This document shows positions 24,881 to 39,147 of a DNA stretch of 44,532 nucleotides, piece after piece. Within the stretch, counting starts at the first letter, position 1. The number at the start of each line of letters is the position of its first letter. A model generated the notes under the pieces. That model was not told where the DNA came from and did not search any database. It worked only from the letters and a program-made list of their open reading frames with translations. The position numbers and the translations under genes are program-made. The stretch comes from Escherichia phage vB_EcoP-CC1: the sequence record OX457022, one strand, 5' to 3'.

Positions 24881-24881
24881 T

Positions 24882-24904
24882 ATTTACTGGACACTATAGG
24901 AGGA
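24882..24904 (+). promoter_or_regulatory. Phage RNAP promoter (ATTTACTGGACACTATAGGAGGA)
   Basis: It is a consensus match that begins 2 nt after the terminase stop. Confidence 0.85.
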
Positions 24905-25037
24905 AGACCAAGAGAGTAAAAGGAATATTATAGGATAATATAGGATTACCTAGGTTATATAGGTGTACCTTAGTATGGGTGTACTCCTGTACACCTATTC
25001 TTACTTGCTATTTACTTATACGTATAAGGAGTATTAG

Positions 25038-25319
25038 ATGGCTAATGATTATAGTAATCAGCCCTTAACTGGTCGCTATGACCGTAAACAGATTACACCA
25101 ACTAGTGAAGCATTAATGCTCCCTGTTGTTACAGAGGAGTCTATTAAGAAGAAAGCCAATGTTATCAATGATGCAACCAAATCTGGTAAACAGAAAGCAG
25201 CAATGGTGTGTCGTCCTGTAGGTGGCACTCTTGAGATTGCCATTGCTACTGGTAGCAAAGAGGATGCAGATTGGTTGTCTGTTAAAATGGATGGCGTTGG
25301 TTTTATTACACCGGCTTAA
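25038..25319 (+). CDS. SGKQ-module protein A (93 aa), unknown function
   Basis: It has a strong SD and is paralogous to the next two ORFs (see findings). Confidence 0.7.
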   Translation: MANDYSNQPLTGRYDRKQITPTSEALMLPVVTEESIKKKANVINDATKSGKQKAAMVCRPVGGTLEIAIATGSKEDADWLSVKMDGVGFITPA

Positions 25320-25336
25320 TAAAAGGAGAAGATAAT

Positions 25337-25624
25337 ATGTCTAAGTATGGCGATGCAGGTACGACTACTGGTCAGGCTTTTCGTGTAAAAGCAGTACAAA
25401 CTATTGCAACTGCAATCCCTATGCCTATCGTGGCAGAAGCTGACCTTAAAAAGAAAGATCATCCAATTAATATTGAACACCTATCTGGTAAGCAGAAAGG
25501 TGCTATGGTGGTTGTAGATAAAGGAGATAATAGCCTTTATATTGCTATTGCACGTGGTTCTGCACCAACTGACCAGTGGGATGTAACTACTATGGAAGCT
25601 GTACCTGTAACACCAGGAGCTTAA
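25337..25624 (+). CDS. SGKQ-module protein B (95 aa), unknown function
   Basis: It has a strong SD and is paralogous to proteins A and C. Confidence 0.7.
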   Translation: MSKYGDAGTTTGQAFRVKAVQTIATAIPMPIVAEADLKKKDHPINIEHLSGKQKGAMVVVDKGDNSLYIAIARGSAPTDQWDVTTMEAVPVTPGA

Positions 25625-25625
25625 T

Positions 25626-26315
25626 ATGCTGGGAGTAACAGGACAACGCAATAAGAATGTAGCCACCAAAGTAGTGGCTGATTTAGCTACTGCTGCTACT
25701 GTCGAGGAATTACGAGACACACATAACTCTATTAACCGTGCTGACCTTTCTGGTAAACAAGAAGGTTCTGTTGTTCTTGTTAAGAAAGAGGATGGCAACT
25801 ATTCTATCTTTGTAGCAACAGGTAGCAAGCCTACTGATGTTTGGAAAGAGTTGTCTCCAACAATACCAGAGCAAGAGATGCCTGCTGAATATATTGATAT
25901 GGTTGATATTCAAATTCATCAAGACTCTGCAAGTAACTTACGTATGGATTCTTCTCGCACGAGCTTAATACAAACACCAATGTGGGATACTGAAGGTGAA
26001 TTGCTATTCCGTAATACCCTGAGCGCAACATGTTCTTGTACCATTCTTGCTGACGGTGCATCTGGTGTTCGTCAGGATTTTAATTTTAAGATTAATGGAA
26101 TCTTAGAGCAAGAAGAGCAGTATTATGACATTGACACTCTTATGTGCTCTATTCATTCTGCAACAACAACTAATGGTCTTACACTGTGTATGCCAGATGT
26201 TAAGAGCGCAAAGACCAATAAGATGGTAGTAAAGGTCGACACTATGCAGTCATTAACAATGAGTTTTGATCTTAACTTCCTTGTTGAATGGACGTCACCT
26301 ACGAGGTTACTATAA
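25626..26315 (+). CDS. SGKQ-module protein C (229 aa: module plus a C-terminal domain of about 140 aa), unknown function
   Basis: The SD is AGGAG. The N-terminal 75 aa are paralogous to proteins A and B. Confidence 0.7.
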   Translation: MLGVTGQRNKNVATKVVADLATAATVEELRDTHNSINRADLSGKQEGSVVLVKKEDGNYSIFVATGSKPTDVWKELSPTIPEQEMPAEYIDMVDIQIHQDSASNLRMDSSRTSLIQTPMWDTEGELLFRNTLSATCSCTILADGASGVRQDFNFKINGILEQEEQYYDIDTLMCSIHSATTTNGLTLCMPDVKSAKTNKMVVKVDTMQSLTMSFDLNFLVEWTSPTRLL

Positions 26316-26659
26316 TGCTAAACGAATACTTCAAGCGTAAAGAATTTGCTTGCCGTTGTGGGTGCGGTACATCCACTGTTGATGCTGAGTTACTACAGGT
26401 AGTAACAGATGTGCGTGAGCACTTTGGTGCTCCTGTGGTTATTACTTCTGGTCATCGTTGCGCCAAGCACAATGCTAATGTAGGTAGAGCTAAGAACTCC
26501 ATGCATCTTACTGGTAAGGCTGCTGACATTAAGGTCACTGGTGTTAGCCCAATGGAGGTACGTGCGTACCTATGCAATAAGTACACTGATAAGTATGGCA
26601 TTGGTGCTTATCCTACTTTTACACATATCGACGTTAGAGGTAACAAAGCACGATGGTAG
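26315..26659 (+). CDS. Endolysin, zinc peptidase M15 family
   Basis: The start is a TAATG overlap. FACRCGCG...SGHRCAKHN...MHLTGKAADI...FTHIDV gives the H/D/H zinc ligand pattern of Peptidase_M15. Confidence 0.85.
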   Translation: MLNEYFKRKEFACRCGCGTSTVDAELLQVVTDVREHFGAPVVITSGHRCAKHNANVGRAKNSMHLTGKAADIKVTGVSPMEVRAYLCNKYTDKYGIGAYPTFTHIDVRGNKARW

Positions 26660-26767
26660 GTTGTGTTGCATGGTGTGAACGCATGGTTGCTAAGGCTTCA
26701 GAGGAAGGCAACTATGCAGATTGGCAGAACTATTCGACTTTATTAGCTCAATGGAAAGGGAGGTGCA

Positions 26768-26917
26768 ATGAAAAAGCTGTTTAAGTCTAAGAAGGTTGTA
26801 GGTGCACTAGTTGCACTAGCAATTGCCCTTGTTTCTGTAGGACTTGGTGTAGACCTTGGTTCTGGCACTGAGGGGTCTGTGACAGATGTAGTTTGCCAAG
26901 TAATTACTTGTGAATAA
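26768..26917 (+). CDS. 49-aa single-pass membrane protein (holin/antiholin-like or lysis accessory)
   Basis: GGGAGG precedes the ATG. The sequence is MKKLFKSKKVVGALVALAIALVSVGLGV.... It is not in the ORF track because it is under 60 aa. Confidence 0.5.
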   Translation: MKKLFKSKKVVGALVALAIALVSVGLGVDLGSGTEGSVTDVVCQVITCE

Positions 26918-27131
26918 ATTTCTTGAAGCACTTGCAGGTCTTATTGGCCTGCTTGTTGCAGCTAAGAAGAAACAGGAAGAGAAGGAGGCACAAAGTGAAG
27001 CGAATCATGTTGGTGATGACCCTGCTGATTGGTTCGCTAATCACTTCCGGGTGTCAGCAGGCGTTACCAGAGAAGAAGGGTGTGAAGCCGCTGAAGCCGA
27101 CGCTGACGGCAGTTTACGAAGTGGACGATAA
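26910..27131 (+). CDS. Putative i-spanin (Rz-like)
   Basis: It starts at a GTG. An N-terminal TM segment (FLEALAGLIGLLVAA) is followed by a charged region, and it overlaps the lipoprotein ORF. Confidence 0.45.
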   Translation: MNKFLEALAGLIGLLVAAKKKQEEKEAQSEANHVGDDPADWFANHFRVSAGVTREEGCEAAEADADGSLRSGR

Positions 27132-27204
27132 GGTCTGCTTCAGTAAGACTGACGCTACACAATTAGGTTTGTATATTCTTTCGCTAGAACGCGGGTATAA
27201 TTAA
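26995..27204 (+). CDS. Putative o-spanin (Rz1-like lipoprotein), overlapped architecture
   Basis: GAAGGAGG precedes the GTG at 26995 (ATG alternative at 27007). The signal peptide plus lipobox is MLVMTLLIGSLITSGC, and the mature part is proline-rich. Confidence 0.6.
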   Translation: MKRIMLVMTLLIGSLITSGCQQALPEKKGVKPLKPTLTAVYEVDDKVCFSKTDATQLGLYILSLERGYN

Positions 27205-27233
27205 TACATATCTTTATGTATCAATGTCCTACG

Positions 27234-27256
27234 ATTTACTGGACACTATAGAAGGA
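27234..27256 (+). promoter_or_regulatory. Phage RNAP promoter (ATTTACTGGACACTATAGAAGGA)
   Basis: It is a consensus match upstream of the second fibre gene. Confidence 0.85.
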
Positions 27257-27333
27257 GAGATAGTGCCGTTCATTTGAGCGGCCTATTACTAGCCAATCTT
27301 CATGGTGAGGGTTGGGAAGTAATAGGAGATAAC

Positions 27334-28857
27334 ATGGCTAAACTAACGAGAGTCACTGACTGGCTTGTTAAGGTAAAGTCCAGACTCACTGGTGCAGTAG
27401 AGCGACTGCTTGAAGATAAGTTAAATGACACGGTTAGTGTTAAGGACTTCGGTGCTAAGGGTGACGGTGTGACAGACGACACACAAGCATTTGCTGCCGC
27501 CTCAGCCGCATCGCCTCAAGGTGTTTATGTGCCTGACGGAACATATTTATTACCAGAAGATATTAATGGCAGGTTCTATGGTTCTGGTAAACGCATCAAG
27601 GCTGTAGGTGATGGTGGTATTCCTTTTACCAATGTAGCTCAGTCACATAGTAACCTAATATTAGGATATGATGCTGCAAAGGATTACACGGACGAAGGGA
27701 AAGGCAACCAATTAGTATTACTTGGCCCAAGCTCCGGTCGTAACCTTACCACTGGTACTAACTCCATTGTGGTAGGTGTTGGTGGCCTATCGGGTGATAC
27801 ATTAGAAGATGCACTAACAGATAAATCACCTTTCACTGGTACAGAGATTATTAGCATTGGTATCAATGCTCTTAAGAAAACTACCACTGGTAACAACATG
27901 ATTGGTATTGGTCGTGATGCCCTGAACGAGTGTAAGGATGGAAGATTCAACGTAGCTATAGGTATGTCTGCTTTGCAGCAGCTACACTCTGGTGAGGCTA
28001 ACGTAGCAATAGGGCGTTCAGCCGGTATGCGTACTGGCATCTTCACTAACGAAGATGGTGTACGATTAGGCTATACAAAATGTAGCGGTAATACCTTAAT
28101 AGGTAACGCGGCTGGTCGTGAATTGAAGTCAGGTAATCATAACACCGCCGTAGGCAATGGTGCTATGCGAGGTGTCAGTTCTGATATTAATCCATATACT
28201 GGCACTCTAGAGGGTAATTTTAATACAGCTATTGGTGTTGATACCTTAAACTCCTTAGCATCTGGTGAGTTGAACACCATGATTGGCGCAAGGGCTGGGC
28301 GTAAATTACCTAGTGGCTCTGGTAACATCTTCATCGGTGCGGATGCAGGTGCAGGTATTAACATTGAAAAGTCTAACACTCTCATTATTAACAACCACAC
28401 TGGCTTACCTTTCGTAGAAGGTATTATGGATGGTGCTCAGAGTGAGAATAACTACTTACGTGTTGATGGAAGTGTAGCACCTCAGATTGATAACACAAGA
28501 ACTTGTGGTCAGTCTAGCCGTAGATGGCAGACTGTCTTTTCTACCAATGGTGTTATCCAGACATCGGATGGACGATGCAAGGATGTCTACGATATTGCCA
28601 AGACGGAGTACATGGCTGGTCTAGAGTTATCTTCTAGTATGATTAAGTTCAAATGGACAGATACTAAAGAAGATAAGTATCACTTCGGTTGTCTGGCACA
28701 AGAGGTCATGCTGATTATGGAGAAACATGGGTTAAACCCTCTGGATTATTCCCTCGTTACCTATGATGCTGAAGCAGATATGTATGGTGTTAACTATGCA
28801 GAATTGTCTTGCTTCTGTATCGCAGCAATGTCCAATCATGTACTAGGCAGTGCGTAA
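27334..28857 (+). CDS. Tail fibre/tailspike 2 with a C-terminal S74-type chaperone
   Basis: AGGAG precedes the ATG at 27334. VKDFGAKGDGVTDDT is a pectate-lyase-3-type motif. About 9 repeats fit the N.(A/I/V)IG..A(L/G) pattern. The C-terminus reads RRWQTVFSTNGVIQTSDGRCKDV...YHFGCLAQEV. Confidence 0.8.
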   Translation: MAKLTRVTDWLVKVKSRLTGAVERLLEDKLNDTVSVKDFGAKGDGVTDDTQAFAAASAASPQGVYVPDGTYLLPEDINGRFYGSGKRIKAVGDGGIPFTNVAQSHSNLILGYDAAKDYTDEGKGNQLVLLGPSSGRNLTTGTNSIVVGVGGLSGDTLEDALTDKSPFTGTEIISIGINALKKTTTGNNMIGIGRDALNECKDGRFNVAIGMSALQQLHSGEANVAIGRSAGMRTGIFTNEDGVRLGYTKCSGNTLIGNAAGRELKSGNHNTAVGNGAMRGVSSDINPYTGTLEGNFNTAIGVDTLNSLASGELNTMIGARAGRKLPSGSGNIFIGADAGAGINIEKSNTLIINNHTGLPFVEGIMDGAQSENNYLRVDGSVAPQIDNTRTCGQSSRRWQTVFSTNGVIQTSDGRCKDVYDIAKTEYMAGLELSSSMIKFKWTDTKEDKYHFGCLAQEVMLIMEKHGLNPLDYSLVTYDAEADMYGVNYAELSCFCIAAMSNHVLGSA

Positions 28858-28870
28858 GCACTGCTTTTCT
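28846..28870 (+). terminator. Rho-independent-type terminator overlapping the fibre 2 stop
   Basis: GCAGTGC-GTAA-GCACTGC is followed by TTTTCT. Confidence 0.7.
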
Positions 28871-28937
28871 CGCAACTTCCCTTGAAGCAATCTAGCGATA
28901 CCTTCAAGGGAATAGCTCAAGAAAGCAAGGAGGTTTG

Positions 28938-29087
28938 ATGCCGTTGATCAAATCAGTTAAGCAAAGTGCTGTACACCAGAACACAGAAGAACTTATTCAA
29001 TCAGGACGTGACCCTAAGCAGGCCTATGCCATTGCCAAGGATGTACAGCGTCGTGCCATGAAGAAACCTTCTGCATCTTCTGCGTAA
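28938..29087 (+). CDS. Hypothetical 49-aa basic protein
   Basis: AAGGAGG precedes the ATG. The sequence is MPLIKSVKQSAVHQNTEELIQSGRDPKQAYAIAKDVQRRAMKKPSASSA. Confidence 0.5.
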   Translation: MPLIKSVKQSAVHQNTEELIQSGRDPKQAYAIAKDVQRRAMKKPSASSA

Positions 29088-29221
29088 TCAGGTTAATATC
29101 TTAGTGTACACAAGGGCAAACCTATGATAGCTCACAGCACACCTCTGAGTGCCGCTCTGGATTCTATGAATTGTTCCCTGACTATCTAGGTTTGCTCTTA
29201 GTATATTACAAAGGAGGTCAC

Positions 29222-29377
29222 ATGATTTGGATCCACACGTATGGTGTAGGGTCATTCAAGAAGAATGTACTCAGGAAGATCCATGAGTCCGAGGAATCAG
29301 CCTTAGCCAGCCAGAAGGTACTTGGTGGTACTATCCAGTGCTACATGAAGAAGCCACAAGGTTTTGACTTAGTGTAA
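29222..29377 (+). CDS. Hypothetical 51-aa protein (last gene before the genome end)
   Basis: AAAGGAGG precedes the ATG at 29222. The longer track ORF beginning at 29171 lacks an SD. Confidence 0.45.
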   Translation: MIWIHTYGVGSFKKNVLRKIHESEESALASQKVLGGTIQCYMKKPQGFDLV

Positions 29378-29435
29378 CCAAAGGTGGTCACAAAGTAACC
29401 AAAGTCAAAATTTTGATGTAGGCGTGTGTCAGCCC

Positions 29436-29724
29436 TCTCGCCCTCGCCCTCGCCGGGTTGTCCCCATAGGGTGGCCTGAGGGAATCCGTCTTCGACGGGC
29501 AGGGCTGATGTACTCCTTGTACTAGCTTAGTAGTACACAAGGGCTGGCCTTTTGTTTTGCCATGTACTAGCAAGGTGGAACGCTGGAGAGCGCCTAGGAC
29601 GGCCTAGGGATGGGCTTAGTGGTGGACAAGGTGATTGCCTTAGTGAAGCCTCTTAGTGCATTCCTGAGGCCATTCAGGGCGTTTATGAGATATTGACAGG
29701 GTGTGCGTGGGTGGGCTATCTGTT
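29436..29724 (+). other. Presumptive terminal-repeat / concatemer-junction region
   Basis: TCTCGCCCTCGCCCTCGCC begins at 29436, CCCCATAGGG lies at 29462-29471 and CTATCTGTT ends at 29724. These parallel T7 left-end features (TCTC..., CCCCCATAGGGGG, CCCTATCTGTT; recalled). The boundaries are not determinable from a collapsed assembly. Confidence 0.45.
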
Positions 29725-29794
29725 CGTTTCGTTCACTCCGCTTGCGCTACGTTCACTCGCTCACGTGTACCTTAGGTTGTTCCTTGATGGATAG

Positions 29795-29897
29795 CTTAGG
29801 TTAGCCTTAGTGGACTACCTTAGTTATAACCTTAGTGCTTATCTTAGTAATAGCTTAGTAATGTACCTTAGTAAGTCTTAGTGTCTTCTCTTAGTGA
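29795..29897 (+). repeat. Dense array of 9 CTTAG(T/G) short repeats spaced 10-13 bp
   Basis: Read directly. About 10 more copies are scattered across 29526-30216 and one lies at 30835. It is analogous to the T7 SRL/SRR arrays next to the terminal repeat. Confidence 0.8.
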
Positions 29898-30042
29898 TTG
29901 CACATGCAAGCATGTAAGATGCCATTAGGTCGCGGTCGGTAGACCGCTAAAGAAAGAGAATAGTAATAAGATGCAGTAGGAGGAACACCAGAAACCTAGC
30001 CAACCTAACCTATCCTAGCTCTGTATCTATTGCTTTTCCTTA

Positions 30043-30058
30043 GTCTAACATGTGAGAC
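30043..30058. repeat. Palindrome family copy, 1 mismatch (GTCTAACATGTGAGAC)
   Basis: Read directly. It is intergenic, 35 bp upstream of the -35 element of the first early promoter. Confidence 0.7.
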
Positions 30059-30092
30059 AACCTAGATTTATCTTAGTGATGATAGCTTAGTG

Positions 30093-30121
30093 TTGACAAG
30101 GCCATCTCAATGTAATACTAT
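30093..30121 (+). promoter_or_regulatory. Host sigma70 early promoter (TTGACA-17 bp-TACTAT)
   Basis: It has a consensus -35 element, 17-bp spacing and a good -10 element, upstream of the first early ORFs. Confidence 0.65.
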
Positions 30122-30192
30122 TCATCACGTAGGCAGCACTGAGGTGCTTAGTAGCCAGCTAGTAAGGCATACGAAGAGACTAGTGCCTGCAT

Positions 30193-30209
30193 TGCTCTTT
30201 AACAATTTG
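30193..30209 (+). promoter_or_regulatory. rrn-type boxA (TGCTCTTTAACAATTTG)
   Basis: It matches the E. coli rrn leader boxA TGCTCTTTAACAA. A hairpin at 30132-30190 precedes it. Confidence 0.65.
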
Positions 30210-30263
30210 CTTAGTGTAACCTATGTATGCCGTGGTTAATTACTTATTGAATGAGGGTTAACT

Positions 30264-30359
30264 ATGAATTACGAAGAAATGTATGAAGACTACTTCAATT
30301 CACTTGATGAAGGAGAAGAAGCATTGTCCTTTGCTGAGTTTATGGAGGCTTTATCATGA
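30264..30359 (+). CDS. Early 31-aa highly acidic peptide
   Basis: GAGGG precedes the ATG. The sequence is MNYEEMYEDYFNSLDEGEEALSFAEFMEALS. It is coupled to the next ORF by an ATGA overlap. Confidence 0.45.
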   Translation: MNYEEMYEDYFNSLDEGEEALSFAEFMEALS

Positions 30360-30532
30360 TTCTGAATAACCGTGAACTATCCATTCTCTTCACCTTGTTG
30401 TGCTATATGATTCGTAACAACGAATTACTTACAGACGATGAACTGGCACTATATCACCGTTTCCTTAACGAAGGTTGGGTCGATACAGTTAACCAGAAAC
30501 GTGACTTGATGAAGGAGTTAAGCAATGTTTAA
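30356..30532 (+). CDS. Early 58-aa hypothetical protein
   Basis: GGAGG precedes the ATG, and the ORF overlaps both of its neighbours. Confidence 0.5.
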   Translation: MILNNRELSILFTLLCYMIRNNELLTDDELALYHRFLNEGWVDTVNQKRDLMKELSNV

Positions 30533-30734
30533 ACATGAGATTTACACTGATTGCAGTAAATCGGCTAAAGCTATCTGCGATTTGTACAAGGCAGAATGCC
30601 AGACGTACAACCTCAACGATGGTACTGAGATGTTTTATCTTCAGTTTGAAAGCAAGTTATCTCACAAACGAGTGATTAACAGCCTGAATCAACACTCCTT
30701 GGAGTGGGAAGAAGTAAATAGCAATAAAGTTTAA
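30525..30734 (+). CDS. Early 69-aa hypothetical protein
   Basis: AAGGAG precedes the ATG, and the ORF is listed in the track. Confidence 0.55.
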   Translation: MFKHEIYTDCSKSAKAICDLYKAECQTYNLNDGTEMFYLQFESKLSHKRVINSLNQHSLEWEEVNSNKV

Positions 30735-30742
30735 ATTAACTA

Positions 30743-30771
30743 TTGACAGCCACGGCATACAAGGTTACATT
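30743..30771 (+). promoter_or_regulatory. Host sigma70 early promoter (TTGACA-17 bp-TACATT)
   Basis: It has a consensus -35 element and 17-bp spacing, upstream of ocr. Confidence 0.65.
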
Positions 30772-30803
30772 AAGCATCAAGACGGCGACGTCTTTAAACA
30801 TCC

Positions 30804-30820
30804 CGCTCTTTAACAATTTG
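30804..30820 (+). promoter_or_regulatory. boxA (CGCTCTTTAACAATTTG)
   Basis: It has the same 16-nt core as 30194-30209. T7 carries CGCTCTTTAACAATCTGG ahead of gene 0.3 (recalled). A GACG-GCGA-CGTC hairpin precedes it at 30781-30792. Confidence 0.65.
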
Positions 30821-30913
30821 GATGGTAGCTTCTTAGTCTGGATAGGTTAAACCTAGGGGATTCTCTTGAGTCTCCTATAATGTAACCTAACTAACTAAAT
30901 GAGGATTAATAAC

Positions 30914-31273
30914 ATGACTATGTCTAATATGACTTACTCTCAGGTTTACAACACCGCTCATGCTGCATTAGTTGAACGTATCTGGAATGATGCTATTGAT
31001 TGTATCGATAACGCACATGATGCAATCCATGAGGTAGCGGACAGTGCTGTACCAATCTATTATGCTGACATCTTCTCAGTGATGGCGAGTGAAGGTATTG
31101 ATCACTTCTTCGAAGACTCCGGCCTGATGCCAGATACTAAGGATGTAACGGTCGTACTACAAGCCCGTATTTATGAACAACTCACCATTGATTTATGGGA
31201 ACGTGTTCAAGATATGATTGTTGCGTACACCAATTACGCTGAGGATTCAGAAGAAGAAGAAGAGGAAGAATAA
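30914..31273 (+). CDS. ocr: Ocr (T7 gp0.3) homologue: DNA mimic, type I R-M/BREX inhibitor
   Basis: MTMSNMTY...[61 protein letters not shown] is near-identical to recalled T7 Ocr, and it has an acidic tail. Confidence 0.9.
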
Positions 31274-31275
31274 GG

Positions 31276-31389
31276 ATGGAAAAGCAATATAACTTTATCT
31301 TTTCAGACGGTGTGACCCTGAAGTGTTCCCTGCGTTTCGCACAGATTCGCGAGGAAGTGCTAGGAACTACATACAAACTATTTAGCTGA
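31276..31389 (+). CDS. Early 37-aa hypothetical protein
   Basis: The ORF starts 2 nt after the ocr stop. The sequence is MEKQYNFIFSDGVTLKCSLRFAQIREEVLGTTYKLFS. Confidence 0.4.
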   Translation: MEKQYNFIFSDGVTLKCSLRFAQIREEVLGTTYKLFS

Positions 31390-31402
31390 CACTATAAGAG
31401 AG
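31380..31402 (+). promoter_or_regulatory. Phage RNAP promoter variant (ATTTAGCTGACACTATAAGAGAG)
   Basis: It has the SP6-like TGACACTATA core, but A rather than G at the predicted +1 (31397). Confidence 0.55.
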
Positions 31403-31462
31403 GGTTTAACAGGGCGCTCTTGCGAGAGTGCCCGATTAAATCAACTTAACGAGATATTAAAT

Positions 31463-31639
31463 ATGAAATACATACTGATTGCTATGTTTTCTGGCTTCAT
31501 TGGCTATGCTGGTGCTTCTTATGACAACTACAGAAGTAAGCAATTGGCTGCTGAAAAGTGGGATAAAACCTATTTTGCTTGTATGAAACAAGGTAATTTG
31601 ATGCAAGATTGCATACTTAAAGCGCACAGCGAAGAGTGA
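31463..31639 (+). CDS. 58-aa protein with an N-terminal hydrophobic segment
   Basis: The ORF is under 60 aa and has a weak SD. The sequence begins MKYILIAMFSGFIGYAGA.... Confidence 0.35.
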   Translation: MKYILIAMFSGFIGYAGASYDNYRSKQLAAEKWDKTYFACMKQGNLMQDCILKAHSEE

Positions 31640-31703
31640 TGAGCCTATAGCCTACTTAAGTGGGCTATGTGAACACCATTCATTAACTCAAAAGGTGACT
31701 ATT

Positions 31704-32627
31704 ATGACTACTGAAAACACCCTCCTGTCTGTTCGTGAAGCTGCAACCGCTGAGATCAAGCAACACTTAGACAATATCGGCACTTCTTACATCAAAGTTG
31801 GCGCTTGTCTTAATGAGTTACGCGGTGACTTTGAAGGTCAAAAAGACTTTTTGGCTTATGTAGAATCAGAATTTGGAATCAAGAAAGCACAATGTTACAA
31901 GCTGATGAGTGTAGCCCGTGTCTTTGAAGGCGATGATCGCTTTAAAGGCGTGGCGATGCGTGTAATGCTGGCACTTGTTCCTTTCGCTGATGAAAATATC
32001 ATCATGGAGAAAGCCGCAGAACTTGCCGCAGCGGGCAAGCTGGACACTAATGCCGTAAATGCCCTGATTGATCCTAAGAAAGAGACAAAGGCCGAGACGG
32101 TACAATCTAAGGCTGAGGCGGTAAAACCGCAGGAGAATGCGACTGAGGCCGCAGAAACTATGCAAGGACATGCGACCTTTGAGGATTTCATCTTAGAGAA
32201 GGCGAAAGAGGAATTACAAAGTGTGCCGCCAGTAAGTGAGTCGGGTAACGACGAATCCGCACCGTGGGAAGATGAAAGCAAGCCGGAAGCGCCAAAGGCC
32301 GCGCCACTGGATAACACGGCTAACACGGAGAACGCCGCTATGTCTGGCCTACTGGCACAAATTAAGGCACTGACTGAGCAATTACAGGCAGCTAACGACC
32401 GCATCGCCGCCCTAACCAGTGCACGGGAAGGTAAGAAAGCGGCTGCGCCTATGCTTCCGCAGTTTAAATCCTCTTGCTTCTACGCTCGCTTAGGCTTGAG
32501 CGCCGAGGAAGCAACGAAGAAAACAGCAGTGAATAAGGCACGCCGTGAACTGGTTAAACTAGGGTATGGTGAAGGTCATGAGGCATGGCCTTTGATCTCT
32601 GAGGCAGTAGAAGAATTAACTAAGTAA
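31704..32627 (+). CDS. Early protein with a DUF3102-like N-terminal domain
   Basis: AAGGTG precedes the ATG at 31704. IKQHLDNIGTSYIKVGACLNELRGDFEGQKDFLAYVESEFGIKKAQCYKLMSVARVF fits the remembered DUF3102 pattern. The middle is acidic and Ala-rich, and a coiled coil follows. Confidence 0.6.
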   Translation: MTTENTLLSVREAATAEIKQHLDNIGTSYIKVGACLNELRGDFEGQKDFLAYVESEFGIKKAQCYKLMSVARVFEGDDRFKGVAMRVMLALVPFADENIIMEKAAELAAAGKLDTNAVNALIDPKKETKAETVQSKAEAVKPQENATEAAETMQGHATFEDFILEKAKEELQSVPPVSESGNDESAPWEDESKPEAPKAAPLDNTANTENAAMSGLLAQIKALTEQLQAANDRIAALTSAREGKKAAAPMLPQFKSSCFYARLGLSAEEATKKTAVNKARRELVKLGYGEGHEAWPLISEAVEELTK

Positions 32628-32690
32628 CCTTATCGGTGGCATCTTCTTAGGTGTCACCTATTAAGGTTTCTTTCACTAGGAGTAAACAAG

Positions 32691-35318
32691 ATGCAAGATC
32701 TACACGCTATTCAGCTTCAGCTTGAGGAAGAAATGTTTAACGGCGGTATTCGTCGCTTTGAAGCAGACCAACAACGCCAGATTGCATCAGGTAATGAATC
32801 CGATACGGCATGGAATCGTCGCCTGTTGTCGGAGCTTATCGCACCTATGGCGGAAGGTATTCAGGCTTATAAGGAAGCCTACGAAGGAAAGAAAGGACGC
32901 GCACCGCGTGCACTGGCCTTCATTAACTGCGTAGAGAACGAAGTGGCAGCATATATCACGATGAAGATCGTAATGGATATGCTTAACACAGATGTAACCT
33001 TGCAAGCCATAGCAATGAATGTAGCTGATCGCATCGAAGATCAAGTACGCTTCAGCAAGCTGGAAGGCCACGCCGCCAAATACTTTGAAAAAGTTAAGAA
33101 GTCACTCAAGGCAAGTAAGACTAAATCATATCGCCATGCGCACAACGTAGCGGTAGTGGCTGAGAAGTCAGTAGCTGACCGTGACACTGATTTCTCCCGC
33201 TGGGAGGCGTGGCCTAAAGATACCTTACTGCAAATCGGTATGACCTTGCTAGAAATACTGGAGAATAGCGTATTCTTCAATGGTCAACCTGTCTTCCTCC
33301 GCACCTTGCGCACTAATGGTGGCAAGCATGGTGTTTACTACTTACAGACCAGTGAGCACGTAGGGGAGTGGGTTACAGCATTTAAAGAACATGTAGCGCA
33401 ACTTAGTCCGGCCTATGCACCTTGCGTCATTCCTCCGCGCCCTTGGGTGTCCCCTTTTAATGGTGGGTTTCATACTGAGAAGGTGGCAAGTCGCATCCGT
33501 TTGGTAAAAGGCAACCGTGAGCACGTCCGTAAGCTGACCAAAAAGCAAATGCCAGCAGTTTATAAGGCTGTTAATGCTTTACAGGCCACTAAGTGGCAAG
33601 TTAACAAAGAAGTTTTGCAGGTAGTAGAAGACGTTATCCGTCTCGACCTTGGTTATGGTGTACCTTCCTTTAAACCACTCATCGACCGCGAGAACAAGCC
33701 GGCTAACCCAGTGCCGTTAGAATTTCAACACTTGCGAGGCCGCGAACTGAAGGAAATGTTAACGCCGGAACAATGGCAAGCCTTCATCAACTGGAAAGGT
33801 GAATGCACCAAGCTGTATACCGCTGAGACTAAGCGCGGAAGTAAGTCGGCGGCAACCGTTCGCATGGTAGGACAAGCGCGCAAATACAGCCAGTTTGATG
33901 CGATTTATTTCGTGTATGCACTGGATAGCCGCTCACGCGTTTATGCGCAATCTAGCACACTCTCACCGCAATCAAACGACCTAGGCAAGGCGTTACTGCG
34001 TTTTACCGAAGGGCAGCCGCTAAATAGCTCTGAGGCGCTTAAATGGTTTTTGGTGAACGGGGCGAATAACTGGGGTTGGGATAAGAAGACTTTCGACGTG
34101 CGCACCGCTAACGTACTGGACGGCGAGTTTCAAGATATGTGCCGCGACATTGCAGCGGATCCTCTGACCTTTACTCAATGGGTAAATGCCGATTCACCTT
34201 ATGGATTCCTTGCATGGTGCTTTGAGTATGCTCGTTATTTGGATGCACTGGATGAAGGAACACAAGATCAGTTTGTGACGCATTTACCTGTTCATCAAGA
34301 TGGTAGCTGTTCTGGCATCCAGCACTACAGTGCTATGCTACGCGACGAAGTGGGTGCGAAGGCGGTAAACCTTAAACCATCCGACTCGCCTCAAGATATT
34401 TATGGAGCGGTTGCGCAGGTTGTTATCCAGAAGAACTACGCCTACATGAATGCAGATGATACAGAAACTTTCACATCTGGAAGCGTAACACTTACAGGTG
34501 CAGAACTGCGCAGCATGGCTAACGCGTGGGATATGATTGGGATCACTCGCGGCTTAACCAAAAAGCCAGTAATGACCTTGCCATACGGCTCCACCCGCTT
34601 AACCTGCCGTGAATCGGTGATTGATTATATCGTTGATTTGGAAGAAAAAGAGGCGCAGAGAGCTGTTGCCGAAGGGCGGACGGCTAATCCTGTGCACCCT
34701 TTTGATAATGACCGTAAAGACTATCTGACACCTGGTGCAGCTTACAACTATATGACCGCTTTAATTTGGCCTTCTATCTCTGAGGTTGTTAAAGCGCCTA
34801 TAGTGGCGATGAAAATGATTCGCCAGCTTGCACGATTCGCAGCTAAAAGAAACGAAGGGTTAGAGTACACCTTACCCACTGGTTTCATCTTGCAGCAAAA
34901 GATAATGGCTACCGACATGCTACGCGTATCCACTTGCTTGATGGGTGAAATCAAGATGAGTCTACAGATTGAGACTGATGTAGTGGATGAAACGGCAATG
35001 ATGGGCGCTGCCGCTCCTAACTTTGTTCACGGTCATGATGCGAGTCACCTTATTCTGACTGTATGTGACCTAGTTGACAAAGGTATTACATCAATTGCAG
35101 TTATTCATGACTCTTTCGGAACTCATGCAGGCCGTACATCAGATCTTCGTGATAGCTTAAGGGCAGAAATGGTTAAGATGTATCAAGGGCGTAACGCCTT
35201 GCAGCAATTGCTGGATGAGCATGAAGAACGTTGGTTGGTGGACACTGGCATTCAAGTGCCGGAACAAGGGGAGTTTAACCTTGAAGAGATATTAGTTTCT
35301 GACTATTGTTTTGCATAA
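32691..35318 (+). CDS. Single-subunit DNA-directed RNA polymerase (SP6-type)
   Basis: [32 protein letters not shown]... and most of the length closely follow the recalled SP6 RNAP. The C-terminus ends ...YCFA. Confidence 0.98.
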
Positions 35319-35325
35319 TATTGAT

Positions 35326-35357
35326 AGGCCATTCCTTAGGGAGTGGCCTTTTCTTTT
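35326..35357 (+). terminator. Terminator after the RNAP gene (early terminator analogue)
   Basis: The AGGCCA...TGGCCT hairpin is followed by TTTTCTTTT. Confidence 0.6.
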
Positions 35358-35392
35358 ACCTATTACCTGTAACATTTAATTAACATAACCGT

Positions 35393-35408
35393 GTCTCACG
35401 CGTGAGAC
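35393..35408. repeat. Palindrome family copy (GTCTCACGCGTGAGAC)
   Basis: It is a perfect dyad located 2 bp upstream of the promoter at 35411. Confidence 0.9.
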
Positions 35409-35410
35409 TT

Positions 35411-35433
35411 ATTTACCGGACACTATAGGATAA
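35411..35433 (+). promoter_or_regulatory. Phage RNAP promoter, ACCGG class (ATTTACCGGACACTATAGGATAA)
   Basis: It matches the core consensus and is the first of a tandem pair after the RNAP gene. Confidence 0.8.
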
Positions 35434-35573
35434 CCGTCGGAGACGGAAAGAGAAGGGAAGATAAGGATATAAAGGAAGTAATAGGTATTAAAGGTTGTAT
35501 AGGTTTACCTAGGAATACTTATTACCTTCTTCCTTCCTCTTCTTACTACCTAGAGGAAGGGCAGACCTAGGTT

Positions 35574-35589
35574 GTCTCACATGTGAGAC
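35574..35589. repeat. Palindrome family copy (GTCTCACATGTGAGAC)
   Basis: It is a perfect dyad located 4 bp upstream of the promoter at 35594. Confidence 0.9.
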
Positions 35590-35593
35590 TTCG

Positions 35594-35616
35594 TATTTAC
35601 CGGACAGTATAGATAA
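35594..35616 (+). promoter_or_regulatory. Phage RNAP promoter variant (ATTTACCGGACAGTATAGATAAG)
   Basis: It matches the consensus except for a C-to-G change at -5. It is the second of the tandem pair. Confidence 0.6.
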
Positions 35617-35642
35617 GACTAACTTACTTTGGAGATTTAACC

Positions 35643-35771
35643 ATGCGTAACTTTGAGAAGATGACCCGTAAAGCTAACCGTTTTGACATGGAAGAAGGGC
35701 AGACGAGAGGCAAGAAGCTGAATAAACCTGTCCGTGACCGTGCATCTAAACGAGCAGCGTGGGAGTCCTAA
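35643..35771 (+). CDS. T7 gp1.1-like 42-aa basic protein
   Basis: GGAG precedes the ATG. MRNFEKMTRKANRF...GKKLNKPVRDRASKRAAWES compares with recalled T7 gp1.1 MRNFEKMTKRSNRN...GRKLNKTKRDRSHKRSWEGQ. It is not in the track because it is under 60 aa. Confidence 0.6.
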   Translation: MRNFEKMTRKANRFDMEEGQTRGKKLNKPVRDRASKRAAWES

Positions 35772-35774
35772 GTT

Positions 35775-37763
35775 ATGGCTATTATTCAGAACGTACCGTG
35801 CCCTGCCTGCCAAAAGAATGGACACGATAAATCCGGCAACCATCTTATGATATTTGAGGATGGCGCTGGTTACTGTAACCGTGGTCATTTCCATGATAAT
35901 GGCAAACCTTATTACCATAAGCCAGAGGGCGGCATCGAGATAACCGAATTGCCCATTACTGGCAATATCAAATACACACCTTCTCAATTCAAAGAAATGG
36001 AGAAGGAAGGGAAGATAAGCGACCCTAAGCTACGCGCCATCGCACTTGGTGGTATGCGTATGAAAGACCGTTGGGAGGTCATGAATGAGCAAGAAAGGGC
36101 AGACCAAGAAGCAGAGTGGAAACTTGATGTTGAATGGTTCCTCACGCTTAAGCGTAAGAACCTTGTTTCCCGACACATTCGCGGCGACATTTGCGCATTG
36201 TATGATGTACGTGTCGGACACGATGAAGAGGGTAGAGTCTCGCGGCATTACTATCCACGCTTCGAGAAAGGTGAGCTAGTAGGAGCTAAGTGTCGCACAT
36301 TACCTAAAGACTTTAAGTTTGGTCATTTAGGTAAACTCTTTGGTATGCAAGATCTTTTCGGGATGAATACTTTGTCTCACGTGTTAGACAAGGGAAGACG
36401 AAAGGATTGCTTGCTTATTGTTGGTGGGGAACTGGATGCGCTAGCAGCGCAGCAGATGCTCCTTGATTCTGCCAAGGGTACTAAGTGGGAAGGTCAACCT
36501 TACCATGTATGGTCTGTTAACAAAGGGGAGTCTTGCCTTGAAGAGATTGTGCAGAACCGTGAACACATCGCCCAATTCAAGAAGATTATTTGGGGCTTCG
36601 ATGGGGATGAGGTAGGGCAGAAGCAGAACCAGCAAGCGGCTCGCCTGTTCCCTGGCAAATCTTATATCCTTGAATACCCCTCTGGTTGCAAAGATGCCAA
36701 CAAGGCATTGATGGCTGGTAAAGCCAAAGAATTTGTGGATGCTTGGTTTAATGCAAAGTCATCTGATGAAGTCTTTGGTAGCCAGATTAAATCTATCGCA
36801 TCTCAAAGGGATAAGCTCAAGGCTGCACGTCCAGAACAAGGGCTGTCATGGCCTTGGCCTAAGCTAAACAAGGTAACACTGGGTATCCGTAAGAACCAGC
36901 TTATCATTATAGGTGCAGGCTCTGGTGTTGGTAAGACAGAGTTCCTCCGTGAAGTGGTAAAGCATCTCATCGAAGAACACGGTGAATCTGTAGGTATCAT
37001 TTCTACAGAAGACCCGATGGTCAAAGTGTCCCGTGCTTTTATCGGTAAGTGGATTGATAAGCGTATTGAACTACCGCCAACCAATGACCCGAAAGAAGAT
37101 GGCTACCGTGAGGTGTTCGACTATACAGAGGAAGAGGCTAATGCTGCCATTGATTATGTAGCTGATACAGGGAAGCTGTTTGTAGCTGACCTAGAGGGTG
37201 ACTATTCGATGGAGAAGGTAGAGCAAACTTGCCTAGAGTTTGAGGCTATGGGTATTTCTAATATCATCATTGATAACTTAACGGGGATTAAATTAGATGA
37301 GCGTGCTTTTGGTGGGAAGGTTGGTGCACTTGATGAATGCGTCAAACGAATTGGTACTATCAAAGACCGACATGCGGTTACGATTTTCCTTGTCTCTCAC
37401 CTTACACGCCCTCCGGCAAACCGTACCCAACACGAAGAAGGTGGCGAAGTTATCCTTTCTGACTTCCGAGGCTCAGGCGCTATCGGATTCTGGGCATCTT
37501 ACGCCTTGGGGATTGAGCGTAATACAAGAGCTGAAACGCTTGATGAACGGACTACCACGTACATCTCATGTGTCAAAGACCGCGACCAAGGTATCTACAC
37601 TGGAACCAAGGTCATGCTTAAGGGTGACATTCAAACCGGACGTTTAATGGAACCACAAGCCCGTACTAAGTCATTTGATACAGGTGAAGCAAGGCAACAA
37701 GAAGTACCTGATTTACCGGACACTATAGAAGAGACAACCTTTGACGATGAACAGGAGTTTTGA
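35775..37763 (+). CDS. Primase-helicase (T7 gp4-like)
   Basis: A zinc ribbon (CPACQKNGH...CNRGH) and a TOPRIM region are present. The Walker A motif is GAGSGVGKT and the acidic C-terminus reads ...FDDEQEF. Confidence 0.92.
   Translation: MAIIQNVPCPACQKNGHDKSGNHLMIFEDGAGYCNRGHFHDNGKPYYHKPEGGIEITELPITGNIKYTPSQFKEMEKEGKISDPKLRAIALGGMRMKDRWEVMNEQERADQEAEWKLDVEWFLTLKRKNLVSRHIRGDICALYDVRVGHDEEGRVSRHYYPRFEKGELVGAKCRTLPKDFKFGHLGKLFGMQDLFGMNTLSHVLDKGRRKDCLLIVGGELDALAAQQMLLDSAKGTKWEGQPYHVWSVNKGESCLEEIVQNREHIAQFKKIIWGFDGDEVGQKQNQQAARLFPGKSYILEYPSGCKDANKALMAGKAKEFVDAWFNAKSSDEVFGSQIKSIASQRDKLKAARPEQGLSWPWPKLNKVTLGIRKNQLIIIGAGSGVGKTEFLREVVKHLIEEHGESVGIISTEDPMVKVSRAFIGKWIDKRIELPPTNDPKEDGYREVFDYTEEEANAAIDYVADTGKLFVADLEGDYSMEKVEQTCLEFEAMGISNIIIDNLTGIKLDERAFGGKVGALDECVKRIGTIKDRHAVTIFLVSHLTRPPANRTQHEEGGEVILSDFRGSGAIGFWASYALGIERNTRAETLDERTTTYISCVKDRDQGIYTGTKVMLKGDIQTGRLMEPQARTKSFDTGEARQQEVPDLPDTIEETTFDDEQEF
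36374..36389. repeat. Palindrome family copy, 1 mismatch, intragenic (GTCTCACGTGTTAGAC)
   Basis: Read directly inside the primase-helicase CDS, where it codes LSHVLD. Confidence 0.6.
37711..37733 (+). promoter_or_regulatory. Phage RNAP promoter, ACCGG class, inside the 3' end of primase-helicase (ATTTACCGGACACTATAGAAGAG)
   Basis: It is a full consensus match. Confidence 0.75.
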
Positions 37764-37924
37764 TGGAAATTATTAAACCATTATTAAATATCGGCGTTGA
37801 CATCCTATTCATGCTTATGCTAGCAAACTATGCTGCACGATATGGATTCAAGCCAGCTGTGAAACTTATCGTTGCATCTGGTTTTCTTATGTCAATGTTC
37901 TTTATTGTAACACACCTTATCTAG
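37763..37924 (+). CDS. 53-aa two-TM membrane protein
   Basis: It is coupled by a TGATG overlap, with AGGAG upstream. The sequence is MEIIKPLLNIGVDILFMLMLANYAARYGFKPAVKLIVASGFLMSMFFIVTHLI. Confidence 0.5.
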   Translation: MEIIKPLLNIGVDILFMLMLANYAARYGFKPAVKLIVASGFLMSMFFIVTHLI

Positions 37925-37935
37925 TGTATTTATCA

Positions 37936-37963
37936 GGGCTTGTCTCACATGTGAGACAGGCTC
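37936..37963 (+). promoter_or_regulatory. Extended hairpin with a palindrome apex (GGGCTT-GTCTCACATGTGAGAC-AGGCTC)
   Basis: The core is at 37942-37957. The flanks pair with two G-U wobbles on the + strand RNA only. Confidence 0.6.
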
Positions 37964-37996
37964 TTATTAAGTACATTAAATAACTGGAGATTGATT

Positions 37997-38719: not shown

Positions 38720-38729
38720 GGAGTTAATC

Positions 38730-38918
38730 ATGACTAAAGTATTGATTTATATGAGAGGTGCTAATAAATGCTATGCAGTTGTAGCACCTGATGGGGTCAA
38801 GCCTTACGGTACTTCAAAAGGATTAGCATTAATAGGTGCTAGTCGCAGTGCAAGTTTCCAAATGGAACTTTTTGGTCATTGGACTGAAAAAAAGAATTCC
38901 GTGAAGAGTTTAATGTAA
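38730..38918 (+). CDS. Hypothetical 62-aa protein
   Basis: AAGGAG precedes the ATG. Confidence 0.5.
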   Translation: MTKVLIYMRGANKCYAVVAPDGVKPYGTSKGLALIGASRSASFQMELFGHWTEKKNSVKSLM

Positions 38919-38939
38919 TTGGCAGCTTTATGGTGAAAC

Positions 38940-39137
38940 ATGCAAAATAAACATAGCCTTAAGATGTTTGATGGTCACGAAGACCTGCAAGCACAAATTA
39001 CCAACCAAGCCTTCCTGTTTGCACAGTTAACTATGGCTGAAGCAAAGAAGAACAGCCTTACTCGTGAGCAGATTATCAAGGAAGGTAGCCGTGGTGCTAC
39101 TCGTCGTACCAAGAACCACAGAAGTGGTGCTCGCTAG
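38940..39137 (+). CDS. Hypothetical 65-aa protein with a basic C-terminus
   Basis: It is a track ORF with a weak SD. Confidence 0.4.
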   Translation: MQNKHSLKMFDGHEDLQAQITNQAFLFAQLTMAEAKKNSLTREQIIKEGSRGATRRTKNHRSGAR

Positions 39138-39147
39138 TCGATAAGTC

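Follow-up and report, generated by a model that had tools for sequence, protein, structure and literature searches.

Host-type boxA elements and a covarying long-range RNA helix in the early leader region of an SP6/K1-5-type coliphage

Results

Organization of the early region

Escherichia phage vB_EcoP-CC1 is an SP6/K1-5-type coliphage (Molineuxvirinae, Vectrevirus), and the window analyzed here is the whole 44.5-kb stretch of DNA in sequence record OX457022. The features considered below are, in order:

30093–30121, + strand: P1, predicted host sigma70 promoter (TTGACA-17-TACTAT), the best consensus match in 29000–36500
30129–30190, + strand: structured leader RNA module (RNAalifold)
30193–30209, + strand: boxA-1, TGCTCTTTAACAATTTG (core 30194–30204; consensus match)
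30208–30235, + strand: 5' arm of a long-range, leader-trailer-like helix (inverted repeats, RNAduplex, covariation)
30264–30734, + strand: helix-enclosed cassette of three small early ORFs of 31, 58, and 69 aa (ORF list; CDS annotated in OX638290)
30743–30771, + strand: P2, predicted host sigma70 promoter (TTGACA-17-TACATT; consensus scan)
30750–30776, + strand: 3' arm of the long-range helix (inverted repeats, RNAduplex, covariation)
30779–30794, + strand: small hairpin AAGACG-GCGA-CGTCTT upstream of boxA-2 (structure prediction)
30804–30820, + strand: boxA-2, CGCTCTTTAACAATTTG (core 30805–30815; consensus match), positional counterpart of the T7 boxA
30829–30904, + strand: large local hairpin, located past boxA-2 and before the ocr ribosome-binding site (fold energy)
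30914–31273, + strand: ocr (gene 0.3-like anti-restriction), the first gene past boxA-2 (phrog_2568, E 4.6e-48; annotated in OX638290)
32691–35318, + strand: phage single-subunit RNA polymerase (RNAP) gene, 875-aa ORF (synteny with the annotated K1-5, SP6, and K1E RNAP genes)
35326–35358, + strand: candidate early terminator TE, a hairpin (10 bp, 6 GC) followed by TTTTCTTTT (consensus scan, sequence)

Among sigma70 consensus matches in 29000–36500, P1 and P2 rank highest (10/12 each), which bears out the proposal in an initial annotation of this DNA that a promoter lies ahead of each boxA in this phage. The physical left end of the genome is inferred to be ∼600 bp away from P1, which is conserved in K1-5, UAB_Phi78, SE29, and Proteus phages; the corresponding site in the Pm5460 record is annotated as a putative host promoter. 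P2 is conserved in all SP6-like relatives examined. The three cassette ORFs belong to PHROG families 2061, 9275, and 6403, none with a known function.

The RNAP gene is the last gene in the host-transcribed early unit, and directly 3' of it is an intrinsic terminator-like hairpin (35327–35348) with a T-run. Host-RNAP early transcripts are predicted to span ∼5.2 kb from the boxA leaders to TE, in agreement with the initial annotation, which had assigned the leaders to early transcripts reaching the end of the RNAP gene. Strong internal intrinsic terminators were absent from the consensus scan, and Rho-dependent sites are not predictable, so the need for antitermination is assumed. Against such a need, the cargo is translated mRNA, and ribosomes already protect against Rho.

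None of the records examined annotates a boxA, a helix, or RNA-processing features in this region, and only a few mark host promoters and terminators; a boxA feature is likewise absent from the original GenBank records of T7 and SP6. Rfam returned no family match at E≤1 for 29600–31400 and, on other phage loci, tRNAs only.

Two rrn-type boxA elements

The 16-nt sequence GCTCTTTAACAATTTG was found exactly twice in the window, at 30194–30209 and 30805–30820, both on the + strand, as the initial annotation had stated. When we scanned the 44.5 kb on either strand with the experimentally derived functional boxA consensus GYTCTTTAANA (Baniulyte 2017), boxA-1 and boxA-2 were the only perfect matches. 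Both cores read GCTCTTTAACA, and a scan allowing one mismatch showed no further + strand copies. Shuffling the window gave an expectation of 0.28 perfect matches, and 3 of 100 shuffles reached at least two.

The claim that the core is the E. coli rrn leader boxA also held: boxA-1 (TGCTCTTTAACAATTT) is identical over 16 nt, the core plus five further nt, to the rrnH leader boxA in the E. coli MG1655 genome sequence. The boxA-2 tail, AATTTGGAT, resembles that of the 16S-23S spacer boxA, AATCTGGAT. The boxA of lambda is the weaker CGCTCTTA. Judged by their sequences, both phage elements are genuine rrn-type boxA elements and not lambda-type.

Relative to the −10 hexamers of the predicted promoters, boxA-1 lies 72 nt and boxA-2 33 nt downstream. 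boxA-1 is single-stranded in both the minimum free energy (MFE) and centroid folds of the whole P1 transcript and forms an invariant island in a 27-sequence alignment; boxA-2 is predicted to lie in a loop closed by a weak 5-bp stem.

Local structures before and after boxA

The initial annotation placed a hairpin before each boxA and read the order as the boxB-then-boxA order of rrn leaders. Both structures exist, and the reading fared less well. What precedes boxA-1 is a ∼62-nt branched structure and no simple hairpin, made up of an outer stem (GTAGGC/GCCTGC at 30129–30134/30185–30190), a variable hairpin, and an invariant 35-nt core, TAGTAGCCAGCTAGTAAGGCATACGAAGAGACTAG (30149–30183). RNAalifold on 12 variants gave 18 pairs, five of them with compensatory changes, and Proteus Acadevirus phages share 82% identity with this phage over the region. 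This module is separable from boxA, as another promoter follows it instead in Koku, L136, L143, and L150. The small hairpin at 30779–30794 is kept in close relatives only; many others have an unrelated GCC-GAGA-GGC hairpin or none.

We rejected the possibility that the leader at 30129–30190 is an RNA of the HK022 put type. Compared with HK022 24000–40751, it showed no motif or BLAST similarity beyond chance (a single 12-nt match, located in coding sequence), and the sole likeness to put RNA is that of a ∼70-nt structured RNA directly after an early promoter.

Downstream of boxA-2, the 145-nt leader containing the 30829–30904 hairpin folds at −41 kcal/mol versus −27.6 ± 3.6 for shuffled sequences (z −3.7). 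Its lower stem (GGATAGGTTA/TAACCT) is conserved and its upper hairpin is variable in relatives; a cross-genus consensus fold, made from a poor alignment, recovered the lower stem alone. By its position, which is like that of T7 R0.3, this hairpin is a candidate RNase III site.

A covarying long-range helix encloses the upstream cassette

The 5' arm of the helix begins 3 nt past the boxA-1 core, and the 3' arm lies inside P2, overlapping its spacer, −10 hexamer, and start region. The 27-bp helix encloses three protein-coding ORFs and no rRNA. The initial annotation does not mention it.

By whole-segment RNAduplex, the two arms pair at −48.3 kcal/mol versus −26.9 ± 2.4 for shuffles. Across the alignment, 98.3% of cells are paired, versus 24 to 36% when the arms are slid against each other, and 13 pairs show compensatory change; 0/500 shuffles did as well. 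Its additional use as a promoter inflates the conservation of the 3' arm but not the covariation. Mismatches are G·U rather than A·C by 30 to 7, and from this excess it is the + strand RNA on which selection acts. The helix is retained in the MFE and centroid folds of the 703-nt P1 transcript (z −4.6) with boxA-1 unpaired. The helix is thus real, covarying, and selected on the + strand RNA.

We rejected an antisense promoter or other DNA-level cause of the inverted repeat, since in reverse complement the 5' arm lacks a −35 element and is not called as a promoter, and pairing tolerates G·U and not A·C.

Elsewhere in the early region there were no other strong long-range helices, only weak, chance-level repeats. 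boxA-2 has no long-range partner (RNAduplex −29.2 versus control −32.5 ± 2.6), and no partner above shuffle level was found for the single boxA of T7 or that of K1F; helix coupling therefore cannot be the only role of boxA.

boxA copies follow helix-flanked cassettes in relatives

The boxA elements are conserved islands in Vectrevirus, Zindervirus, Acadevirus, Ulipvirus, and an unclassified Klebsiella phage. In ten SP6-like genomes, drawn from five genera, we counted two to three copies per genome, every one of them on the transcribed strand and within the early leader region; the element itself is invariant and its immediate flanks are variable, and degenerate copies occur in addition to the up to three intact ones.

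The initial annotation assigned a single boxA to every promoter or transcription unit, and on this point relatives disagree. Four copies, in K1-5 (1467), K1E (1975), SP6 (926), and UAB_Phi78 (1056), have no TTGACA promoter within 200 nt upstream, and each lies directly behind a helix 3' arm. At every non-terminal boxA, a covariation-supported helix 5' arm starts 1 to 4 nt downstream, so boxA multiplicity is better fitted by one boxA per helix-flanked cassette. Relatives also have a second helix type that joins one boxA to the next around single ORFs (98.2% paired, four compensatory pairs).

Comparison with rrn operons and other boxA systems

As a positive control we took rrnH, where boxA is followed after 1 to 2 nt by the 5' arm of the 16S processing helix and the same analysis gave −59.6 versus −39.1 ± 2.4. 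The boxA-helix layout of the phage is the same as that of E. coli rrnH: boxA, then directly the 5' arm of a 25- to 40-bp long-range helix around the cargo, and later a boxA after the 3' arm. In both systems boxA is the conserved part, with an upstream hairpin that is dispensable (rrn, whose boxB can be lost) or variable (phages). The systems differ in that the phage cargo is a translated mRNA cassette of 130 to 760 nt in a phage-encoded operon and in that the phage 3' arm doubles as a promoter. The rrn boxC motif (UCUGUGUGGG) is absent from the phage 5' arm, which reads UGCUUAGUGUAACCU, and the rrn boxA-to-boxC spacing of 18 to 19 nt has no clear phage counterpart; boxC is matched in its structural role alone, as the 5' strand of the leader-trailer helix. 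For rrn, a looping model and an essential role of the leader-trailer helix have been published.

boxA-2 in turn resembles the T7 arrangement of promoter, boxA, local hairpin, and ocr. The initial annotation had pointed to an element ahead of T7 gene 0.3, and we located it as CGCTCTTTAACAATCTGG at 811–828, between A3 and 0.3; 17/18 nt match (CGCTCTTTAACAAT[T/C]TGG). The order is P2 (30743), boxA-2 (30805), hairpin (30829–30904), and ocr (30914) here and A3 (750), boxA (813), and gene 0.3 (925) in T7, and both boxA elements are part of an early unit transcribed by host RNAP, with its end near or past the phage RNAP gene. T7 and K1F, however, have one boxA and no long-range helix, whereas this phage has two boxA elements and a helix-enclosed upstream cassette. 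Genetic evidence for the T7 boxA as an anti-termination element is attributed to Savalia 2010, as cited in PMC3709561; since that copy is already treated in this way, boxA antitermination in such leaders is a known idea.

The nut sites of lambdoid phages likewise place a boxA-type NusB/E site on host-RNAP early phage transcripts. There, boxB lies downstream of boxA and is bound by N, whereas in this phage the structure downstream of boxA is a long-range helix arm or a 76-nt hairpin, and the OX638290 annotation contains no N-like gene in the early region. Non-rRNA uses of the consensus on host-RNAP transcripts have been reported before CRISPR arrays (Stringer 2020) and at suhB (Baniulyte 2017). 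In those cases, untranslated arrays are shielded from Rho or translation is repressed, and the available parts of the two papers describe flanking leader-trailer helices for neither. Our literature search found no paper joining boxA with Autographiviridae, and SP6/K1-5 genome papers may already mention multiple copies; nor did it find RNase III sites described in SP6-like early regions.

Discussion

boxA-1 lies at the foot of a long helix that encloses a cassette, and in this respect the early operon is laid out like an rRNA operon. We propose that the rrn-type boxA elements load the host Nus complex for early read-through, with a copy number that follows the rrn-like helix architecture, and we put the probability of this reading at roughly two in three. 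boxA would most likely nucleate host NusB-NusE(S10), NusA, NusG, and SuhB on the polymerase, as in rRNA operons, and the modified host RNAP would transcribe the 5.2 kb to TE in a fast, processive, and Rho-resistant manner. Nus-factor binding and antitermination at the phage sites are probable. By analogy with rrn, the boxA-anchored complex may keep the 5' arm close to the RNA exit channel for as long as the 3' arm has not emerged, so that tether and delivery would be coupled; RNase III could then cut the helix, which by its length and continuity could serve as a substrate, and the next boxA might re-load the complex for the downstream RNA. P2 transcripts would begin right behind the 3' arm.

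The initial annotation instead gave each host promoter its own boxB-boxA leader, serving read-through to the RNAP gene only. This account fits the present phage, in which each boxA is ∼30 to 70 nt from a predicted start site and P2 transcripts would have no boxA without boxA-2, and it fits most boxA copies in relatives, which have a TTGACA promoter 17 to 150 nt upstream. It does not fit the four promoterless copies behind helix 3' arms, the upstream hairpins, which are unconserved or separable modules, or T7, where one boxA serves the three promoters A1 to A3, and we consider it unlikely. Could the boxA and arm repeats mainly be module boundaries, that is, 20- to 45-nt linkers for recombinational cassette swaps, with any RNA function secondary? 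A linker needs neither an exact NusB/E consensus nor a single strand nor pairing kept through compensatory and G·U changes, and the T7 boxA has, by the cited genetics, a transcriptional phenotype. We hold this explanation to be improbable even though cassettes vary in number and content among relatives between nearly identical boxA/arm blocks and K1-5 resembles this phage plus one extra boxA-arm-ORF-arm unit.

More doubtful still is a sponge, in which abundant early RNAs titrate NusB, NusE, and SuhB from host rrn and so aid host shut-off. Strong promoters would supply transcripts with one or two perfect boxA elements each, and the several copies per transcript in relatives would raise capacity; a decoy, however, needs no fixed position of boxA relative to helices or leaders, and the T7 genetics, as cited, point to cis-acting read-through by host RNAP. 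We give the least credence to the idea that boxA-bound Nus complexes act not on elongation but, as at E. coli suhB, as repressors of translation of the neighboring gene. Such repression is documented (Baniulyte 2017) for a boxA within ∼50 nt of a start codon, and the first ATG (30264) is 59 nt past the end of boxA-1; yet ∼100 nt and a large hairpin separate boxA-2 from the ocr start, the boxA-to-start-codon distance varies among relatives, and repression of the first-needed phage genes is implausible.

Returning to the loading of the Nus complex by boxA with helix-set copy number, a wider form of this reading is that early or pre-early operons in several unrelated phage groups, here SP6/K1-5-like podophages, the T5-like phage My1, and a set of lambdoid phages, are built as rRNA-operon mimics. 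We offer it tentatively, as somewhat more apt to fail than to hold. A leader-trailer helix would enclose each mRNA cassette, with the 5' arm placed directly behind a host-type boxA; the Nus/SuhB-modified RNAP would shield the transcript from Rho while holding the 5' arm and delivering it to the 3' arm; and RNase III would excise cassettes, with the following boxA re-arming the polymerase. In the present phage, where the 3' arm doubles as P2, processed P1 and primary P2 transcripts would then share nearly the same 5' end.

If the proposed mechanism is true, virulent phages borrow the whole rrn operon layout of boxA, leader-trailer helix, and boxA, beyond the boxA signal itself. The "anchor and deliver" model of the ribosomal antitermination complex, which is difficult to examine on rRNA itself, could then be studied on a small mRNA system that is not essential. 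The mechanism would also explain why SP6/K1-5-type therapeutic phages have conserved non-coding blocks at their left ends, and it would point out cis-elements to preserve or exploit when such phages are engineered.

Two rrn-type boxA elements in the early region

The window matched Escherichia phage vB_EcoP-CC2 (OX638290) at 100% identity. This phage (Autographiviridae, Molineuxvirinae, Vectrevirus) is a member of the K1E/K1-5/SP6 lineage in the T7 supergroup. The record is circularly permuted, and comparison with K1-5, where the first promoter (P1) lies at 609, placed the physical left end ∼600 bp 5′ of P1. All early genes are carried on the + strand, and the region contains the following features.

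30093-30121, predicted sigma70 promoter P1
30193-30209, + strand, boxA-1
30208-30235, 5′ arm of the long-range helix
30264-30734, + strand, three small ORFs
30743-30771, predicted sigma70 promoter P2
30750-30776, 3′ arm of the long-range helix
30804-30820, + strand, boxA-2
30914-31273, + strand, ocr
between ocr and the RNA polymerase gene, + strand, 310-aa early ORF
32691-35318, + strand, phage RNA polymerase gene
35326-35349, + strand, strong terminator-like hairpin, then TTTTCTTTT

The initial annotation had proposed two rrn-type boxA elements, each behind a host-type promoter, and we confirmed both parts of this proposal. The window contains exactly two copies of GCTCTTTAACAATTTG (30194 and 30805), and GYTCTTTAANA, described in PMC5725501 as a consensus derived from functional boxA mutants, matched only these two copies in 44.5 kb (0.28 expected by chance); a one-mismatch scan found no further + strand copy in the window. 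Across the 7.5 kb scanned for sigma70 promoters, P1 and P2 were the top two matches. In comparison with the rrnH operon of E. coli, copy 1 equaled the leader boxA over TGCTCTTTAACAATTT, in agreement with the claimed rrn match, and the tail of copy 2 resembled that of the spacer boxA. The T7 element that the initial annotation placed ahead of gene 0.3 was also present (CGCTCTTTAACAATCTGG, downstream of A3), and a single boxA copy occurs in K1F.

We examined ten SP6-like genomes (Vectrevirus, Zindervirus, Acadevirus, Ulipvirus, and an unclassified Klebsiella phage), and each contained two to three consensus matches to boxA. Every match lay on the transcribed strand and in the first 1-2 kb of the early region; there were none in the rest of the 6-10 kb examined per genome. 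SP6 and K1E each carry one extra, degenerate boxA 5′ of ocr (GATCTTTAACA and GCTCTTTTAACA); it lies at ∼1535-1551 in SP6 (GATCTTTAACAATCTGG, C2 changed to A) and at ∼2240 in K1E (GCTCTTTTAACAAT, one additional T), so the ocr-proximal boxA may be dispensable where upstream copies exist. Among 27 aligned non-redundant sequences, boxA was invariant or nearly so at every column while the 3 nt 5′ of copy 1 and the 15-30 nt 5′ of copy 2 took several unrelated forms, indicating that boxA is under selection of its own.

We conclude that the two-boxA finding is real. Its interpretation as antitermination is reasonable, although to a large extent it repeats a known element of T7: PMC3709561 treats the T7 boxA as an anti-termination element and, citing Savalia et al. 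2010, reports that boxA mutations render the host-RNAP inhibitor Gp2 dispensable, so the core idea represents a known mechanism in a new lineage. What our analysis adds is an rrn-like helix architecture, of which we found no description in the literature and annotations searched; multiple boxA copies may already be mentioned in the SP6 and K1-5 genome papers.

A long-range helix links successive boxA copies

Listing the flanks of every copy revealed that the sequence directly 3′ of boxA-1 is the reverse complement of sequence inside P2. An inverted-repeat search defined the arms (30208-30222 with 30762-30776, and 30224-30235 with 30750-30761) as 27 bp with one bulged A. Using RNAduplex, we paired the 45 nt 3′ of each boxA with the next 1.8 kb. 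Pairing at boxA-1 reached −48.3 kcal/mol versus −26.9 ± 2.4 in shuffles, and all non-terminal copies in relatives gave −35 to −53.5, with the partner 130-760 nt 3′ and ending 1-30 nt ahead of the next boxA. The weakest was UAB_Phi78 671 at −35.3, where the best of ten shuffles was as good (−35.5). Pairing was at control level for the ocr-proximal boxA and for the one copy in each of T7 and K1F.

Across 27 non-redundant arm pairs, the helix was 98.3% paired, versus 24-36% with the partner slid, and compensatory double changes were found at 13 of 27 base pairs; none of 500 shuffles reached the observed values. The excess of G·U + U·G over A·C + C·A (30 versus 7) indicates that the + strand RNA is under selection. 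A second helix type surrounds single ORFs, from boxA(n) to boxA(n+1), in K1-5, K1E, SP6, and UAB_Phi78; it was 98.2% paired with four compensatory pairs, the number of compensatory pairs alone not exceeding shuffles. When the 703-nt P1 transcript was folded, the MFE and centroid structures both retained this helix of 27 bp (z −4.6) and left boxA-1 unpaired, with the leader module on one side and the helix on the other; there were no other strong long-range helices in the early region. Both anatomy and covariation link boxA multiplicity to helix-flanked cassettes.

Within 30743-30776, P2 and the 3′ arm share 27 nt (spacer, −10 hexamer, and start region). In Proteus phages, the −10 region reads TACACT for TACATT and the 5′ arm, 540-760 nt upstream, is altered to match; this stretch thus seems to be constrained both as DNA and as RNA.

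Proposed and alternative roles for boxA and the upstream hairpins

The two copies could simply represent one boxA for each promoter, as the initial annotation held. That rule failed in relatives, where copies in K1-5 (1467), K1E (1975), SP6 (926), and UAB_Phi78 (1056) have no TTGACA-type promoter ≤200 nt upstream. Less probably, the copies might act as recombination linkers, as a Nus sponge, or in translational repression. We take them to be probable Nus-factor loading sites for host RNAP, on the basis of their exact match to the consensus, strand, position, conservation, and T7 genetics. Complexes of the rrn type, according to Squires-lab work, reportedly resist Rho and stop at intrinsic terminators, which fits the strong hairpin-plus-U terminator that closes the early unit.

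The boxB-like hairpins proposed ahead of each copy held up only in part. The structure preceding copy 1 is real, with an outer stem, an invariant core, and a variable hairpin in which four pairs covary, but it is separable from boxA, being followed by another promoter instead in Koku and three further phage loci (L136, L143, and L150). The hairpin 5′ of copy 2 (30779-30794) is not conserved: four relatives have an unrelated GCC-GAGA-GGC hairpin in its place, and it is absent from Klebsiella, Salmonella, and Proteus phages in the 27-sequence alignment.

The ∼62-nt structured leader 3′ of P1 (30129-30190) has an invariant 35-nt core (30149-30183) kept from E. coli to Proteus phages, with the motif AGTAGCC...GGCATAYGAAG in a hairpin loop. 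This motif recurs 5′ of boxA in PL-side leaders of unrelated lambdoid phages, L020 and L091 (GAAGTAGCCGCCTGGGGCATATGAAGTCCAGG), and after the second cassette of Pectobacterium phage My1. An Rfam search gave no match for the leader, and a comparison with the put region of HK022 showed no similarity; binding of a host factor or RNAP is a possible role.

Comparison with rrn operons and T7

Applied to E. coli rrnH, the same calculation recovered the 16S processing helix (340-393 with 1992-2061; −59.6 versus −39.1 ± 2.4), whose 5′ arm begins directly 3′ of boxA. Published work shows that 30S biogenesis requires the rrn leader-trailer helix, which RNase III cuts, and that the key element is boxA, boxB being dispensable. 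From cryo-EM, boxA was suggested to anchor the leader, delivering its 5′ strand to the emerging trailer. The phage layout is similar: boxA and the 5′ arm lie on one side of the cargo, here an mRNA cassette, and the 3′ arm and the next boxA on the other. By analogy, boxA would anchor and deliver the 5′ arm, and RNase III may cut the helix. Unlike rrn, the phage lacks a boxC sequence, its helix encloses conserved small proteins, and its 3′ arm coincides with the P2 spacer and −10 hexamer. Because of this last coincidence, P2 transcripts would start just 3′ of the arm, and helix-cut P1 transcripts would share nearly the same 5′ end.

The downstream unit resembles T7, with P2, boxA-2, a 76-nt hairpin, a ribosome-binding site, and ocr corresponding to A3, boxA, R0.3, and gene 0.3. 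The 76-nt hairpin (z −3.7) has a lower stem conserved across genera and a variable upper part.

Occurrence in other phages and additional early-region elements

A scan of viral contigs showed that the boxA core is common in phages. My1 (L124, T5-like) has two consecutive boxA plus predicted-helix cassettes in its left terminal repeat, the pre-early region (∼5.8-7.9 kb), the second boxA lying directly 3′ of the first cassette's 3′ arm. Another locus (L113) has such a cassette followed by an 8-tRNA array, a 99-kb contig (L031) has boxA directly before the 5′ arm of a predicted long-range helix, and lambdoid phages of the L020/L091/L115 class have boxA and a predicted helix beside cI. In all these loci outside the SP6 group, the 5′ arm comes directly 3′ of boxA, and the predicted helices (−37 to −48 kcal/mol) enclose at least one ORF.

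CTTAGT is strongly clustered around the left end: the 44.5-kb window has 35 copies on the + strand, 21 of them within 1.7 kb (29100-30832). Eight form a run at 10-13 nt spacing in the 29806-29890 region, those at 30072 and 30086 abut the P1 −35, and others occur at 30147 (leader), 30210 (helix 5′ arm), and 30832 (3′ of boxA-2).

A hairpin, GGTGGCA...TGTCACC (32635-32658), occupies the 63-nt gap 5′ of the phage RNAP gene and could be an RNase III site like T7 R1 or an attenuator of RNAP gene expression. At this position, SP6 (L005 3322) and the Klebsiella and Proteus relatives have a TTGAC-type promoter, which in the Proteus phages overlaps an annotated rho-independent terminator (Pm5460, L006 3848-3896).
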